A stretch of DNA of 55,227 bases. It comes from Methylocystaceae bacterium (lineage in GTDB: Bacteria > Bacillota > Syntrophomonadia > Syntrophomonadales > JBLNAA01). Within the stretch, counting starts at the first letter, position 1, and the number at the start of each line of letters is the position of its first letter. The stretch lies in the NCBI GenBank assembly GCA_050259135.1, contig JBLNAA010000160.1:1-55227 (forward strand). Direction: 5' to 3'. Below the pieces are notes generated by a model. That model was not told where the DNA came from. It did no database searches and saw only the letters and a list, made by a program, of their open reading frames with translations. This document shows, piece after piece, positions 15,910-26,620 of the stretch. The position numbers were made by a program, and so were the translations under genes.

Positions 15910-16302
15910 TTAAGGTATCTGAGTTTGAACCTGCCCGCTGAAAACAATTTGGATTACACCACCATAACTGCAGATCAGTTTAGAGCTATTATTAAGGGCT
16001 GGTTTGTTCGCAATCAAGATGGTTGGACAACCTGGAGCCCACGGTGCCGCTGTCATTGGTGTACATGGCATCGGTGTAAGTACCCCCAGGGCTGCTGCTG
16101 TTGCGGAAGCAACCGCTGGATTAGCCATGGAACTGCACATTCCAAACGGCGGTATATTTAAAAAGGATTTGTTATCCATAATAGTGGCTGCCGGCATAGT
16201 AGCATTTACCCGATCGGCTGGCAATACTACCAATGTGCTGGGGGCTAAACCAAAGCTGCACTGCATGGCCGCTCCATTGCAAACTAAAAAACCCATCCCC
16301 AT
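15910..16302 (-). CDS. DUF4280 PAAR-like spike tip protein
   Basis: VCNGAAMQCSFG, NIPPFGMCSSMANP, PMPCTP...WAPG, LICSYGGVIQI; AAGGAGG SD. Confidence 0.9.
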   Translation of the reverse strand: MGMGFLVCNGAAMQCSFGLAPSTLVVLPADRVNATMPAATIMDNKSFLNIPPFGMCSSMANPAVASATAAALGVLTPMPCTPMTAAPWAPGCPTILIANKPALNNSSKLICSYGGVIQIVFSGQVQTQIP

Positions 16303-16338
16303 GGACCTCCTTTTCCTCGAATTGCCCAGCTTCTTAAG

Positions 16339-19137
16339 CTATACTAATAAGACCCCATTCCATTTCTCAGGGGAACCATCTCTTTCAAACTCTTCACAGC
16401 GATAGAAATAGATACGGGCTATTTCATCGGCACGATTATGTTTGATAACATCGATAAACTTGCTGCGGGCGTCGTAGAAGTACCCATTCTGGAATAACTG
16501 TATACCTTCCTCGAATAATTCCCTGCTTTCTAACTTCAGATCCCGTATTTCTTCACTTTCACCTGCAAATATATCATACAAAAGTAAAGGTTCATCACGT
16601 CCCTCGGCTTGTATTCTGCCGAGACTGCGATATTCATAACGATGAGAATTTTCCATCGCTTTAAGGAAGTCTTCTGTAACTATGATCGAACAGGCCAGCT
16701 TATTGGTCAGTGATTGCAGGAACGCAGCCACATTGACATGATCTGAAATCACCGTCCCGGCCATTCGCTTTTCTTCACCGATAATTCCCAACATCAACGG
16801 TCCCTTGTGAATACCAACGCCGATGTCAATCGGTACATAACCAGCTCGTTTCCGGCCTGCATTATAATCTACCAATCGTTTGCGTAGTTCAATCGCTGCC
16901 TGCAGAGCCTGGTCAGCATGGTCAGGGAAAAGGGCCAGGAAGCCGGAACCAGTATATTTATCAATTAATCCATCATTGGAACTAATGACCGGTCCCATCC
17001 AACTCAGGTAGGACTTAATAAAATTAAAATTATCCTCTGGACTCATAGTACCGGAAAGCTGATAAAACGAATGGATATTAAGGGAAAATATACTCATGTC
17101 CTCTCTTACCTGATCCCCCAGCTGGACATCGATAATACTGCTCTTTCCTAATAAATTAAGAACTTGTTGAGGTACAAAACGGTAGTAGGCTTCACTCAGG
17201 TCAGTAATTTCTTGAATATAACTTCTGATATGATCCGCCATATCATTAACACTTGCTCCCAGGTCAGCTACTTCATCTCCCGTGTCAAGCGTAACCGCAA
17301 TATCCCAGTTACCCTGAGCTATTTCGGCTACACTGTTTCTCAACTGGCGGATTGAAAGCAGCTGGTAATAGGTGATTAACAGGAAAATGGCGATTATGGC
17401 CAGGGTGATCAGACTTATCTTTTTAGCTATATTTTTGAATAATGCCATCCTTTCCTGATTAAATCCGCTGCGATCCACACCCGATTCATAAATACCGATA
17501 ATCTTGCCCTGGGCATCAAAAATGGGGGCCATCGCAAACATCCAACTTCCATTTTCATCGTTGGCTTTATCAGTCACCATCTTTTTCGTATCCAAAACCC
17601 GTTGAAACTCGCCGGCAATCGTAATCGGGCGGTACATATTAACACTGTTATCATAATCAACAATGGCATAAAGCCGGTCATTTTCAAGCTTGTATATAGC
17701 AGTGTAAAGTCCGGCCTCATCCAGTTTGTCGTCACCATAGCTGCCTCGATGGATTTGCGCTTCAATCGTCAGGTTCCGCAGAAAACTATAGTCGGCATTC
17801 ATATAATCCTGCGGGCTGCTTATATTCTGCAGGCGTATCGGATCCAGCCGGTTTAATCCGGTACGCGTAAGCACCACCAGCTGTCGATAAACCTCTTTTT
17901 CCTCGCGATCGGCAAACTGCAGATAGGTAAACCAGGACAGAAATACCATGCCCACTATGATAACCGGAGTAAATACTACAATCTGTTTGACAATTAGAGA
18001 TACCCGGCGCTGCATTATTTCTATATACAAGTAGCGCAGCAGATATATAAATAGCCCTAGAATGGCCCAAGGCAGGCACCAAAAGAATAAGCGCTTCTGC
18101 GTAGATTTGGAAGGCTGGGTGACCGTATTTATCGTATCAGTCAATTGACCACTGGTATCTATCTCATATATTCGATCACGAAGTGCCACTGACAGGCTGC
18201 CATCTGCCCCGATTACCATGTCTTTTATTACCGATAGCACTTCATCCTTCCCCAGGTTAGCCTGAGAAAAAATGGTTTTTCCGGAACTCAGCCCACTGAT
18301 ACTCAGACAGCGAATTTCATTGGCAAAAGTATCGATAAAGTACAGCTTACCCTGTTTAAGCTTTAACTGGGTTGGAAAAGTCCGATCCGGGGTTTGGCTG
18401 GCCCAGCTAAGCCCCATTAAGCCAAAATCAGCAGGCCGTGGGTAAAGCAGCTTTGATTCTCCGTTAGCATTAATATTGAATATTTGTCCGCGTTGGGTGC
18501 AGTAGTAGATTTCTCCTGGCGTTGTCCCAGTAATATCTGCTATATAAGCATCGGAAGCAAGATAAGCAATAATATATTGATGGCGTGAATAATCCTGGAG
18601 GTTAATTGAATATAAATAAATCCGGCTGGGCTGCAGATAGTTAAAGTACAGGGAATCGTTCCTGACTTCCAGGGATTTTATATTGCCTGCCCTTAAAGGA
18701 CGTTGATTACCGCTATATTTTATCTGGTGCAGAACCCTGGACTGATTGCCATCAGCGGAAAAACGAAGAATATTTTCTCCTACTACATATATTCCTTTAC
18801 TATCCAGATCTGTACGGCACACATAAAGATTGCCCTTGCGGTCAGCCGCCAGCTCACTATATAAATACATTTTATTTTTATTACTGCCGGTGGGCTCGAT
18901 CAGGTATCGGCATTCACCCCGATTGTTAACTTTTATAATCTTTCTGCGTGCTTCCACAATCATATAAAGATTACCGTCAGCATCAGATGTAATAGATGAG
19001 AGATTTTGAACTGGCAGTCCTTTATTTAGAGGTGACTGAGACAGTAAGTCTTTATTTGCCAGCAGCAAGCAGAATAACACGACTAAGGTTCCCAGTAAAA
19101 CTAAAGGTAATACCAGTTTCCTATTCATCAATTCCAC
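16339..19137 (-). CDS. Membrane receptor with HAMP and degenerate class III adenylate/guanylate cyclase domain
   Basis: Four hydrophobic segments, beta-rich and Cache-like extracellular regions, HAMP (GDEVADLGASVNDM), YYRFVP linker, IDKY, IGVGIHKG..MLGIIGEE.R, TPR-like tail. Confidence 0.85.
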   Translation of the reverse strand: MELMNRKLVLPLVLLGTLVVLFCLLLANKDLLSQSPLNKGLPVQNLSSITSDADGNLYMIVEARRKIIKVNNRGECRYLIEPTGSNKNKMYLYSELAADRKGNLYVCRTDLDSKGIYVVGENILRFSADGNQSRVLHQIKYSGNQRPLRAGNIKSLEVRNDSLYFNYLQPSRIYLYSINLQDYSRHQYIIAYLASDAYIADITGTTPGEIYYCTQRGQIFNINANGESKLLYPRPADFGLMGLSWASQTPDRTFPTQLKLKQGKLYFIDTFANEIRCLSISGLSSGKTIFSQANLGKDEVLSVIKDMVIGADGSLSVALRDRIYEIDTSGQLTDTINTVTQPSKSTQKRLFFWCLPWAILGLFIYLLRYLYIEIMQRRVSLIVKQIVVFTPVIIVGMVFLSWFTYLQFADREEKEVYRQLVVLTRTGLNRLDPIRLQNISSPQDYMNADYSFLRNLTIEAQIHRGSYGDDKLDEAGLYTAIYKLENDRLYAIVDYDNSVNMYRPITIAGEFQRVLDTKKMVTDKANDENGSWMFAMAPIFDAQGKIIGIYESGVDRSGFNQERMALFKNIAKKISLITLAIIAIFLLITYYQLLSIRQLRNSVAEIAQGNWDIAVTLDTGDEVADLGASVNDMADHIRSYIQEITDLSEAYYRFVPQQVLNLLGKSSIIDVQLGDQVREDMSIFSLNIHSFYQLSGTMSPEDNFNFIKSYLSWMGPVISSNDGLIDKYTGSGFLALFPDHADQALQAAIELRKRLVDYNAGRKRAGYVPIDIGVGIHKGPLMLGIIGEEKRMAGTVISDHVNVAAFLQSLTNKLACSIIVTEDFLKAMENSHRYEYRSLGRIQAEGRDEPLLLYDIFAGESEEIRDLKLESRELFEEGIQLFQNGYFYDARSKFIDVIKHNRADEIARIYFYRCEEFERDGSPEKWNGVLLV

Positions 19138-25409: not shown

Positions 25410-25471
25410 TGCTCTTCTCCCCCGGATCCTAAATTTCTCTGACTCTAACCTGAGAGCTCTCAGGAAATCAC

Positions 25472-26620
25472 TTACTTGATTGACTGATATATCTCATCTG
25501 CCACCAGGAGAATCTCAAACGGAGGTTTATAATCTATTTTCCTGGCAACTTCCAGGTTTAAGGCAATATGAGGTACATTTTCATACACCTGCAGAAGTTT
25601 TCGAGATGAGGTTCCTTTTAGAATTTTAATCATATTATTAGCCCCGAACTCTCCTACCCCACTGAAGTCAGCCCGGGCTACGCTCATCAAGGCACCGGCG
25701 GTAACCTCTTCGGTTCCCAACTGAGAAAAAACCGGAATCTTCTTTTCATAAAATGGCTGCAACAATTCAGGTAACCGAGCCGGGTCGATGGGGGCCATGG
25801 TCAAATACATGGCGTCCACCTCTTGTGCCAATTGACGATGAAGTGCCAGCAGATCACGATAATATCTTTCCTCATCCGCTTTGTTTACCGGTTCCACAAT
25901 CTGCATCGACTTCACCTCAAATCCCTGTTCCTTGGCCAACTCCTCGGCATCATCAACCGCGGCATATACTCGGCCCAGAGGTGAATTGGCATAAACCATT
26001 CCCATCCGTTTAAAATGAAAGAGGTCATAGAAAACCGTCATTTGGCGTTTATATACTCGGGCATCCATGTGCGCCCAGATATGATCACTGCCGGAATCAT
26101 TTTCTGATTGTATGATGCCGGAGCGAACTGCATTACTGGTTGAAAATACCATTACCGGCACGGTGTGCTGGTCATTAGCTAACAGCTTTCCCGCTGAAGT
26201 TCCCATGCATATAACCAGGTCAATATCCCTTTGCTGGGCCAGGCGGGTTATTATGCCCTGTTTCTCGGGTTCACTCATCTCACTCAGGGTGTAATGACCG
26301 TCTTTAACAAACTCAAGATATGGTGAGATATCCCTGGTTGAAAGCCATTCCCACATGGCGGTGGTATCCAACTGCCCTTCCTGGTACGGTAAACCCTGGG
26401 TACTGGTAATCCATCCTGCTTTTTGCAGTCCTTGAATCAAACCATAAAGAGTTCCCGAGTAATTAATCCAGGGTTCCGTCTCACAATAAGCGATCCGATA
26501 TTTATGCGCCAGTTCACTTTCTTGGTTGGAAACCCCATTGACGGCTACCAGTGGTTGGGGTATCACTAATATGGATAATGCGAGAATTAAGCAGGCACCT
26601 ATTCTCAATAATCTTTTCAT
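25472..26620 (-). CDS. Orphan ABC-type substrate-binding protein (ABC_sub_bind-like)
   Basis: Signal peptide; [50 protein letters not shown] 26620 follows GGAGGGAG. Confidence 0.8.

Follow-up and report, generated by a model that had tools for sequence, protein, structure and literature searches.

A conserved accessory trio and an optional transporter cassette at the DUF4280 end of an extracellular contractile injection system locus of Syntrophomonadales

Introduction

Extracellular contractile injection systems (eCISs) of the Afp, PVC and MAC types combine a sheath, gp19-type tubes, a VgrG-like spike, gp25, Baseplate_J, a P2_I-like protein and a fibre with an AAA+ ATPase, a Pvc16_N cap and a DUF4157 (eCIS_core) protein, and the locus described here is like them in all of these parts. 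It lies on contig JBLNAA010000160.1 (assembly GCA_050259135.1), the entire 55-kb contig (55,227 nucleotides) being the window that was analysed; it belongs to a 2.38-Mb metagenome-assembled genome (MAG) of the order Syntrophomonadales, 99.5% complete, whose named relatives are Syntrophomonas and Syntrophomonadaceae MAGs. Our subject is positions 15910..26620, where seven genes encode a DUF4280 (PAAR-like) spike-tip protein, a receptor with a degenerate cyclase domain (pseudo-cyclase receptor), a MORN-repeat membrane protein, and a four-gene cassette comprising an orphan substrate-binding protein (SBP), a fusion of sensor domains to a transporter of the major facilitator superfamily (MFS), a GNAT acetyltransferase and a racemase. 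The MORN protein, the pseudo-cyclase receptor, the cassette and the position of the DUF4280 tip gene, at the locus end beside membrane proteins, set the locus apart from Afp, PVC and MAC. DUF4280 is already known as an eCIS-linked PAAR type, among the PAAR_H/DUF4280 subtypes (PMC8651086). Altogether, the locus is an ordinary eCIS core with an undescribed membrane sensory module.

Envelope sensing is familiar from a different injection machine, that of type VI secretion (the T6SS), whose assembly and firing in Pseudomonas are gated post-translationally by TagQRST-PpkA-Fha. In both, the injection-system cluster encodes a binder (a lipoprotein or periplasmic protein), a membrane component that resembles a transporter, and a receptor in the membrane; the present one differs in its proteins, its lack of a kinase or FHA domain and its anaerobic Firmicute host. 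To our knowledge, little has been established about the cue for eCIS assembly, firing or exit; transcription factors are the regulators known so far, and the sole membrane partner described is CisA of the Streptomyces cytoplasmic contractile injection system (CIS). CisA has a cytoplasmic N-terminus and an outside C-terminal domain that resembles substrate-binding proteins; it lies outside the particle and is nevertheless needed for contraction and function (PMC12237407).

The words 'cyclase', 'MORN', 'MFS' and 'racemase' are absent from the main texts of two eCIS censuses, Chen 2019 (PMC6899500) and Geller 2021 (PMC8213781), whose supplementary domain tables may list such domains, and from a 2026 review. 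Our literature search found nothing relevant that joins contractile injection with MORN, with alanine racemase, or with adenylate cyclase plus HAMP, no paper with both eCIS and Syntrophomonas, and, by title or abstract, no paper on a class of SBP-dependent MFS transporters.

A trio of receptor, MORN protein and DUF4280 in eCIS loci

Three of the seven genes form the part of the module that is most closely bound to the injection machinery:

15910..16302, minus strand: DUF4280 (PAAR-like) spike-tip gene (Pfam DUF4280, 122.8 bits against a cut-off of 26.3)
16339..19137, minus strand: pseudo-cyclase receptor, 932 aa (Pfam HAMP and Guanylate_cyc)
19367..21091, plus strand: one-pass MORN-repeat membrane protein (Pfam MORN, 108.7 bits)

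Among 125 genomes of the order, 18 sheath-positive and 107 sheath-negative, full-length receptor homologues (E <= 1e-70) occur in 14 of the 18 and in none of the 107, and MORN homologues (E <= 1e-25) in 16 of the 18 (the present genome included) as against 2 of the 107. The sheath-positive genomes G011 and G047 hold a split, cyclase-domain-only form of the receptor directly after DUF4280. Beyond the order, the C-terminal 330 residues of the receptor served as query in a scan of one genome for each of 185,579 species, which returned 353 relatives; the best 80 were kept and scored for the catalytic tetrad and its flanks (the scan used an alignment of 11 rows, a 19-row one being too divergent). 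Within these best 80 of 353, 33 have a degenerate tetrad, and every one of the 33 is from Bacillota: about 28 are from Paenibacillus, and the rest from Marinicrinis, Syntrophomonadaceae and the MAG Ch109. DUF4280, MORN or other eCIS genes lie within 10 kb of 31 of the 33, the contigs of the other two being too short to judge. The remaining 47 of the 80, from spirochaetes, cyanobacteria, Bacteroidales and Nitrospirae, keep the D-D-N-R tetrad, and eCIS genes accompany none of them (0/47). By this distribution the degenerate receptor branch is exclusively linked to eCIS loci, and the first layer of the module, the trio, is linked to eCIS with it.

Complete eCIS loci of a Paenibacillaceae MAG, Marinicrinis and Wukongibacter also hold the three genes, in other orders and orientations and with sheaths 68-69% identical to that of the window, which supports the view that MORN protein, pseudo-cyclase receptor and DUF4280 are a conserved accessory trio of an eCIS lineage found in Syntrophomonadales, Paenibacillaceae and Wukongibacter. 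In nearly all loci DUF4280 has the receptor or the MORN gene as its neighbour; in G005, 7 kb separate it from the receptor gene, and in G043 it stands at the opposite locus end. Structural eCIS genes do flank the 15910..26620 stretch on either side (Pfam), and the preliminary description had argued from this enclosure that the module belongs to the injection system; the argument fails, as in almost all relatives DUF4280 stands at the locus end with the receptor or MORN gene. The distribution makes the case for the trio instead. An arrangement that would have spoken for a chance insertion, DUF4280 directly after the fibre gene, was seen in locus L149 (fibre-DUF4280-MORN-receptor); elsewhere DUF4280 mostly adjoins the receptor or MORN gene at the locus end.

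The receptor is built, in order, of a transmembrane (TM) helix, a six-blade NHL propeller, two TM helices, a Cache-like domain, another TM helix, HAMP, a degenerate class III cyclase domain and a TPR-like tail. Its Guanylate_cyc domain scores 39.9 bits against a cut-off of 21.9 (Pfam) and has PDB sequence matches down to 8.8e-16, which places it in the class III cyclase fold. A model of residues 1-620 from a 17-row alignment (predicted local distance difference test, pLDDT, 82.5) places an all-beta domain (40-340) behind a first TM helix, and an alpha/beta domain (433-555) between a pair of TM helices and a last one, and in a fold search of the model the beta domain matched six-bladed NHL propellers; the Protein Atlas gave low scores only (<= 0.84) for the outside part and holds no stored model of it. 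Compared with the solved cyclase 2W01, N replaces the first metal Asp, S the second and F the transition-state Arg, so that the tetrad reads N, S, N, F where an active class III cyclase has Asp, Asp, Asn, Arg; the label 'pseudo-cyclase', given to the protein from its letters alone, was apt. All 11 eCIS-adjacent receptors of the order are degenerate at the metal and Arg positions in the alignment, whereas two full-length paralogues away from eCIS loci in eCIS-positive genomes (G002:C27 and G005:C3), about 40% identical along their entire length, have all four residues (D, D, N, R). Active HAMP class III cyclase receptors share the architecture and the TPR-like tail, with 39-46% identity in the C-terminal 330 residues; they retain their tetrad away from eCIS genes, whereas both the first metal Asp and the Arg are gone from the eCIS-linked branch.

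The MORN protein comprises a basic, conserved N-terminus of about 60 aa, one TM helix, MORN repeats and a C-terminal domain, a build that recurs in 13 homologues encoded in eCIS loci; the positive-inside rule predicts that the repeats face outward. It is single-pass, but it differs from CisA in its short basic N-terminus and its outside MORN repeats, and the two are likened by architecture and distribution, not by sequence. As integral membrane proteins, both the MORN protein and the receptor were ruled out as cargo.

The third member of the trio is a stand-alone small protein in a CIS locus, and its Pfam score identifies it as a PAAR-like spike tip. Its gene has an AGGAGG ribosome-binding site of its own and begins 36 nt behind the receptor gene. 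That no other PAAR gene is recognisable, as had been said of the surroundings of the spike, extends to the whole genome, with one DUF4280 match and no PAAR_motif match.

The gene order of 23 Paenibacillus loci continues from the receptor through a small GNAT, an MFS-HEAT fusion with a cyclic-nucleotide (cNMP)-binding domain, an RsbW-like kinase and a 112-aa open reading frame (ORF) to a GAF-SpoIIE phosphatase. Ahead of the receptor, these 23 loci (among L125-L148; e.g. L128 4095-19817) have MORN, DUF4280 and then a protein of 1050-1335 aa with an OEP-like segment and a Cu_amine_oxidN1 end; L128 also carries an AraC regulator. Some genes of the wider set look interrupted: the sheath gene G039:C75:25726-27410 has one in-frame TGA and falls into two pieces, the sheath gene G048:C42:103034-104527 consists of two overlapping pieces, and the DUF4280 gene G005:C6:382040-382423 has one TGA. 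Decay, frameshifts or assembly errors could account for them.

The transporter cassette

Between the fibre gene and the MORN gene lies the cassette, on the minus strand throughout:

25472..26620, minus strand: membrane-anchored orphan SBP of the PF04392 family (Pfam, 44.5 bits against a cut-off of 25.9)
22998..25409, minus strand: sensor-MFS fusion, 803 aa (Pfam MFS_1, 90.9 bits against a cut-off of 33.4)
22280..22939, minus strand: GNAT acetyltransferase of an uncharacterised Bacillota family of about 210-240 aa (Pfam Acetyltransf_1, 30.8 bits; start approximate, longest ORF to 23056)
21132..22265, minus strand: extra alanine (or serine) racemase paralogue (Pfam Ala_racemase_N, 201 bits, and Ala_racemase_C, 106 bits)

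The ATG of the SBP lies 14 nt after the fibre stop codon, and hydropathy gives the protein an N-terminal hydrophobic anchor. The locus holds no ATP-binding cassette (ABC) permease or ATPase by Pfam, which speaks against ABC-type uptake, and in most loci of the family the SBP gene is immediately upstream of the sensor-MFS gene. The latter encodes a TM helix, a Cache/PDC-like domain, two TM helices, a second Cache/PDC-like domain, a TM helix and a 12-TM MFS part (MFS_1 at residues 412-734; hydropathy), the MFS_1 score and the about 12 TM helices placing it in the superfamily. No Pfam Cache model matched the protein; the Cache/PDC assignment comes from a model of residues 1-400 (38-row alignment, pLDDT 86.7) with two helix-sheet-helix domains, the best fold matches of which were WalK, KinD, the TlpC dCache, Tlp3 and LuxQ (Foldseek; probability 1.00 to KinD, TlpC and Tlp3). 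Its N-terminus has no significant similarity to the receptor (best E 0.7), and the two sensors of the window are therefore not duplicates of one another.

The GNAT has no NCBIfam match, and its Protein Atlas neighbours are all unnamed GNATs. The racemase scores 305 bits with the alanine racemase equivalog TIGR00492 alr (cut-off 168) and 295 bits with the VanT-G serine racemase model, below the cut-off of 460; racemases for Ala, Ser and Lys and broad-spectrum enzymes are among its solved relatives. The genome has three full-length racemase genes in all; this one is 36% identical to the copy on contig C135, and the presence of the other two ruled it out as the housekeeping gene.

Modelling of the SBP with the MFS, one of the checks proposed at the outset, supports docking of the SBP on the sensor domains. 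Three runs with SBP residues 28-382 and MFS residues 1-400 scored 0.64, 0.65 and 0.64, against 0.00 for the best of three controls; the score mark applied is reached by 58 of 80 solved complexes and by 2 of 110 mismatched pairs, counts that are rough, as our own alignments were used. Contact agreement between the runs was at least 92%, and partner pLDDT at least 84. The predicted interface joins MFS residues 53-63 and 255-275 to SBP residues 346-379 and covers the invariant Y61-G62-K63 motif and SBP P350, F368 and D375, columns that are invariant or nearly so in the family alignments.

LuxP-LuxQ is a solved complex of a binding protein with a PDC sensor. The cassette resembles it in the PDC/Cache-like outside domains of the MFS, in LuxQ being among the fold matches and in the modelled SBP docking; it differs in that the output is a 12-TM MFS rather than a kinase and that two TM helices separate the sensor domains. 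The tripartite TRAP and TTT transporters likewise pair a binding protein with a secondary transporter without an ABC ATPase, but here the membrane partner belongs to the MFS and brings Cache-like docking domains of its own.

Close MFS orthologues (47-75% identity) are confined, within the order, to eCIS-bearing genomes, being found in 10 of the 18 sheath-positive and none of the 107 sheath-negative ones, and the SBP shows the same pattern. The cassette directly follows the fibre gene in L031-L034, L038, L039 and L078, and it recurs in eCIS loci of Paenibacillus sp. y28, Marinicrinis, the Paenibacillaceae MAG, Wukongibacter and a Clostridia MAG. Four gene orders were seen in all: in Syntrophomonadaceae the cassette follows the fibre gene, in Paenibacillaceae the receptor gene (the MFS gene being duplicated there), in Wukongibacter the MORN gene and in the Clostridia MAG the AAA gene. 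The Bacillota MAG Ch109 has a split cassette, with the racemase beside the receptor at the sheath end, and the SBP, the MFS and an unrelated 149-aa GNAT after the fibre gene. In G011, a single ORF joins a receptor-type propeller-plus-Cache sensor to an MFS domain and is followed by a HAMP-SpoIIE gene. Pvc16_N is present in all six genomes that have the cassette beside the receptor (6/6).

Related genes are found in other surroundings as well. Sheath-negative genomes hold a second MFS group, 32-39% identical to that of the window, with SBP homologues (43-47%) and GNAT homologues (27-30%). These second-group MFS, GNAT and SBP genes bracket clusters for ribosomally synthesized and post-translationally modified peptides (RiPPs) in genomes without eCIS (L040, G035:C1:1270001-1290000; L044-L046; L051-L053). 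Such clusters encode precursor peptides (one to four of them, with a Nif11 leader, a GG cleavage motif and a short core), at least one radical SAM enzyme, two ABC exporters, of which one has a C39 peptidase, HlyD and a Peripla_BP_6 protein.

The eCIS locus and its layout

Scans of the 40 window ORFs with Pfam and NCBIfam delimit a complete eCIS locus at 15.9-53.3 kb. Sheath, tube, spike, gp25/J baseplate, AAA+ ATPase and Afp16/Pvc16 cap stand in one locus, all above the Pfam cut-offs, and the same ORF calls and profile scans bore out the placement of the seven genes in the preliminary description, between the fibre gene and a MarR gene. The features outside those already given are:

15826..15872, minus strand: terminator-like hairpin with a U7 tract (fold)
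19138..19366, no strand: A+T-rich divergent intergenic region between the MORN and receptor genes, with probable promoters (sequence)
26635..28293, minus strand: tail-fibre-like gene, 552 aa, which closes the structural genes of the sheath-to-fibre operon (NCBIfam CIS13_fam match at the N-terminus)
28329..45522, minus strand: structural eCIS operon (Pfam)
46259..53277, plus strand: divergent operon (Pfam)

The structural operon encodes the sheath, two gp19-type tube proteins, a 142-aa ORF, a 1142-aa tape-measure-like ORF, a tube-LysM protein, a gpD-like protein, a VgrG-like protein, gp25, two Baseplate_J proteins and a P2_I-like protein, and the sheath-to-fibre genes together occupy 26.6-45.5 kb on the minus strand. 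The divergent operon opens with an OpuAC-type orphan SBP; the eCIS_core (DUF4157) protein of 725 aa, the AAA+ ATPase, the Pvc16_N cap and a 266-aa ORF follow at 47.5-53.3 kb on the plus strand, diverging from the sheath gene. The fibre protein has an N-terminal CIS13_fam match of 112 bits, below the 370-bit cut-off, and no Pfam match; homologues of 32-74% identity hold the same position in related eCIS loci.

Among the 40 window ORFs, Pfam found no capsid, terminase or T6SS membrane-complex genes, a search confined to the window, and no lysis genes were recognised. PADLOC gave no defence-system match for 10 of 11 locus proteins; the receptor alone was matched, weakly, by PycC cyclases (E 4e-9 and 1.3e-8), owing to the cyclase fold that the two have in common.

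The gaps between the fibre, SBP, MFS, GNAT and racemase genes measure 14 to about 60 nt, a spacing that suggests a single transcription unit. The MORN gene stands alone and is convergent with the racemase gene, and no hairpin was found at their junction. The receptor and DUF4280 genes run from the 229-nt A+T-rich divergent region, in which 19309-19338 on the plus strand is one promoter-like site by consensus match only, to the hairpin with U7. A terminator after DUF4280, as previously described, is borne out in part: the hairpin folds at -18.7 kcal/mol (z -1.7; 12 of 200 shuffles fold as well), but a simple terminator scan, which returned 11 sites against 12.3 in shuffled sequence, did not list it.

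Several neighbouring genes deserve mention. At 46259-47425 (plus strand), between the sheath and eCIS_core genes, the OpuAC-family SBP (132.6 bits) is a second orphan membrane-anchored binding protein, and a 42%-identical homologue lies between DUF4280 and the sheath gene in G050. The 725-aa eCIS_core (DUF4157) protein (47485-49662, plus strand) carries an HExxH motif (HELTH), has a long C-terminal part of low complexity and is a candidate for cargo or for a loading factor. The 142-aa ORF between the two tube genes (42829-43257, minus strand) is 57-78% identical across all related eCIS loci and has no family match, just a weak sub-threshold HypA hit. In the N-terminal half of the P2_I-like baseplate protein (28329-30419, minus strand) there is a weak NHL-repeat match (E 0.0038); the receptor's outside domain, too, has the NHL-propeller fold. 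Outside the locus, a 132-aa ORF at 9966-10364 (plus strand) matches only positions 1-100 of the 384-position AMP-binding profile and is probably a gene fragment. The unlinked cassette of G005, of SBP, MFS and racemase genes, is followed by two tandem CHASE2 cyclase genes (L042 11278-15065, G005:C11); by alignment, the Asn and Arg are missing from one and the second Asp from the other, as is seen in heterodimeric cyclases that have a single active site.

A proposed control end and its alternatives

Our best reading of the module is that it serves envelope-sensing, small-molecule control rather than contributing structural parts, and we consider it somewhat better than an even chance that it forms a two-layer, envelope-facing, non-structural control end made of the trio and the optional cassette. 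In the first layer, the outside NHL propeller and Cache-like domain of the receptor would feed HAMP and the catalytically dead cyclase domain, so that the receptor would read an extracellular cue and signal by protein contacts, not via cAMP or cGMP. The MORN protein may act as a membrane adaptor in the manner of Streptomyces CisA, as its architecture and distribution suggest, and the DUF4280 gene would be transcriptionally tied to a membrane protein gene (receptor or MORN) and not to the VgrG gene. Together, the MORN protein and the receptor could set the place or time of the machine's assembly, docking, firing or release. In the second layer, the membrane-anchored SBP is predicted to dock on the two Cache-like domains of the MFS transporter, the GNAT and the spare racemase may process its cargo, probably a small molecule that contains a D-amino acid or is N-acetylated, and the cassette would supply or remove the cue or a co-signal. 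What is said here of the substrate, the direction of transport and the output of the module is inference.

Several observations weigh against this reading, above all where the cassette is concerned. Receptor C-terminus-like ORFs of about 340-415 aa (E 1e-32 to 1e-49) occur in sheath-negative genomes G060, G056, G115 and G117, those of G060 and G056 with internal stops. Relatedness makes the genomes non-independent, and whole-locus transfer may account for much of the synteny. Three sheath-positive genomes, each 99% complete (G103, G043 and G015), have MORN and receptor genes and no match to either kind of MFS at E <= 1e-15, and in G005 and G002 the cassette stands on contigs other than those of the eCIS. 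The neighbourhood check proposed in the preliminary description, under which homologues occurring mostly without eCIS genes would speak for chance insertion, gave that very result for the sensor-MFS family at large: among 66 loci collected species-wide, 29 lie beside peptide-export genes (Nif11/C39-ABC/HlyD), 21 in neither setting (several of these on short contigs), 11 in eCIS loci, and 5 had a receptor-like hit only, two of the five being contiguous with full eCIS loci, two in genomes holding Pvc16_N and one an artefact. Pvc16_N is found in none of the four genomes with a stand-alone cassette. Mapped on the MFS tree, the eCIS label has to change 6 times, and well-supported branches force at least 4 of these changes; the tree covers 63 proteins, was built by a quick method and has three long branches, and is to be read with care. 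The pass of the SBP-MFS complex may partly reflect likeness to LuxP-LuxQ, such a complex of an SBP with a PDC sensor having been solved. Lastly, the window module encodes no DNA-binding or other recognised output, the MarR gene just outside excepted. The cassette is accordingly optional and portable, neither necessary for nor specific to eCIS, and the fibre-MORN slot that it occupies is variable, that of G103 holding AAA-Pvc16-orf266. The earlier claim that the module belongs to the injection system therefore stands for the trio, by its lineage-wide distribution, and not in the same form for the cassette, which is not eCIS-specific but does recur in eCIS loci of distant taxa in different gene orders, with a GNAT and an MFS following the receptor even when non-orthologous.

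This portability is what a self-protection or resistance unit would show, in which a binder, a pump, a modifying GNAT and a spare racemase target travel with secreted weapons and have no part in controlling the machine. Such a unit would explain an immunity-gene-like distribution, with 29 of the 66 loci beside Nif11/C39-ABC export clusters, others in eCIS loci and others alone in genomes without eCIS, and would suit a racemase that is a third, divergent paralogue; immunity genes are reported from eCIS loci (Geller et al. 2021, PMC8213781). It leaves unexplained, however, the repeated adjacency to, or fusion with, a pseudo-cyclase-type sensor (G011 and Paenibacillaceae), the two cyclase genes after the unlinked copy in G005, and the cNMP-binding MFS and the RsbW-like and SpoIIE signalling genes in Paenibacillus. 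We also know of no small-molecule toxin of an eCIS, and we hold self-protection to be unlikely, though the most credible of the alternatives. If the cassette were instead a metabolic or transport island that landed by chance after the fibre gene and spread with the locus, leaving only MORN, receptor and DUF4280 eCIS-related, then the variability of the fibre-MORN slot (the genes of G103, and DUF4280 after the fibre gene in L149), the three nearly complete sheath-positive genomes that lack the cassette and its standing alone in many taxa would all be expected. Chance sits badly, however, with recurrence in eCIS loci on at least 4 separately supported branches of the MFS tree, among stand-alone and RiPP-linked proteins, and in four gene orders, with the Ch109 locus keeping all four genes though split, and with the restriction of close orthologues to 10 sheath-positive genomes of the order, two unlinked cases included. 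The theme of receptor, GNAT and MFS is kept with non-orthologous parts, and a signalling or small-molecule function coupled to the receptor is therefore favoured over chance insertion, to which we give little credence.

A role at the cell wall was also weighed, in which racemase, GNAT and MFS remodel the wall or surface of the producer with D-amino acids or acetylated compounds, allowing particles to exit or making the producer a non-target for its own fibres, like the receptor-modifying genes that adjoin phage tail-fibre genes. D-amino acids are known wall-remodelling agents and seroconversion genes sit by phage fibre genes, and the cassette here begins right behind the fibre gene in the same apparent operon. 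In Paenibacillaceae and Wukongibacter, however, the cassette comes after the receptor or MORN gene and not after the fibre gene, peptide-export clusters are flanked by the same triad, and no wall-acting domain is present, which makes this the least probable of the explanations considered. A bolder version of envelope control deserves separate mention, namely that the machine is receptor-gated and membrane-docked rather than a free 'extracellular' system. The MORN protein and the receptor would then make up a cytoplasmic-membrane platform. It would recruit the baseplate with its DUF4280 tip, which would be why the DUF4280 gene is encoded with these two proteins, and would fire or release the machine when an outside ligand binds at the NHL propeller and the Cache domain; making or clearing a D-amino-acid-derived co-signal would fall to the GNAT, the racemase and the SBP-gated MFS. 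We regard this version as rather improbable, a little below self-protection in likelihood and above chance insertion.

Conclusions and outlook

The degenerate receptor branch provides a clean, testable marker in about 30 Paenibacillus species and several anaerobes, where it occurs with the MORN protein and the spike-tip gene, and many carriers of the trio are cultivable soil bacteria, which makes genetics and cryo-tomography feasible. Should the SBP dock on the Cache domains of the MFS as modelled, the pair would be a new binding-protein-dependent secondary transporter, shared by eCIS loci and RiPP export clusters. Should the machine be membrane-docked, it would be the first ligand-controlled contractile injection system, with the first SBP-dependent MFS. 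More broadly, the presence of membrane sensor genes together with an optional transporter cassette suggests that eCIS machines of this lineage are controlled from the cell envelope.

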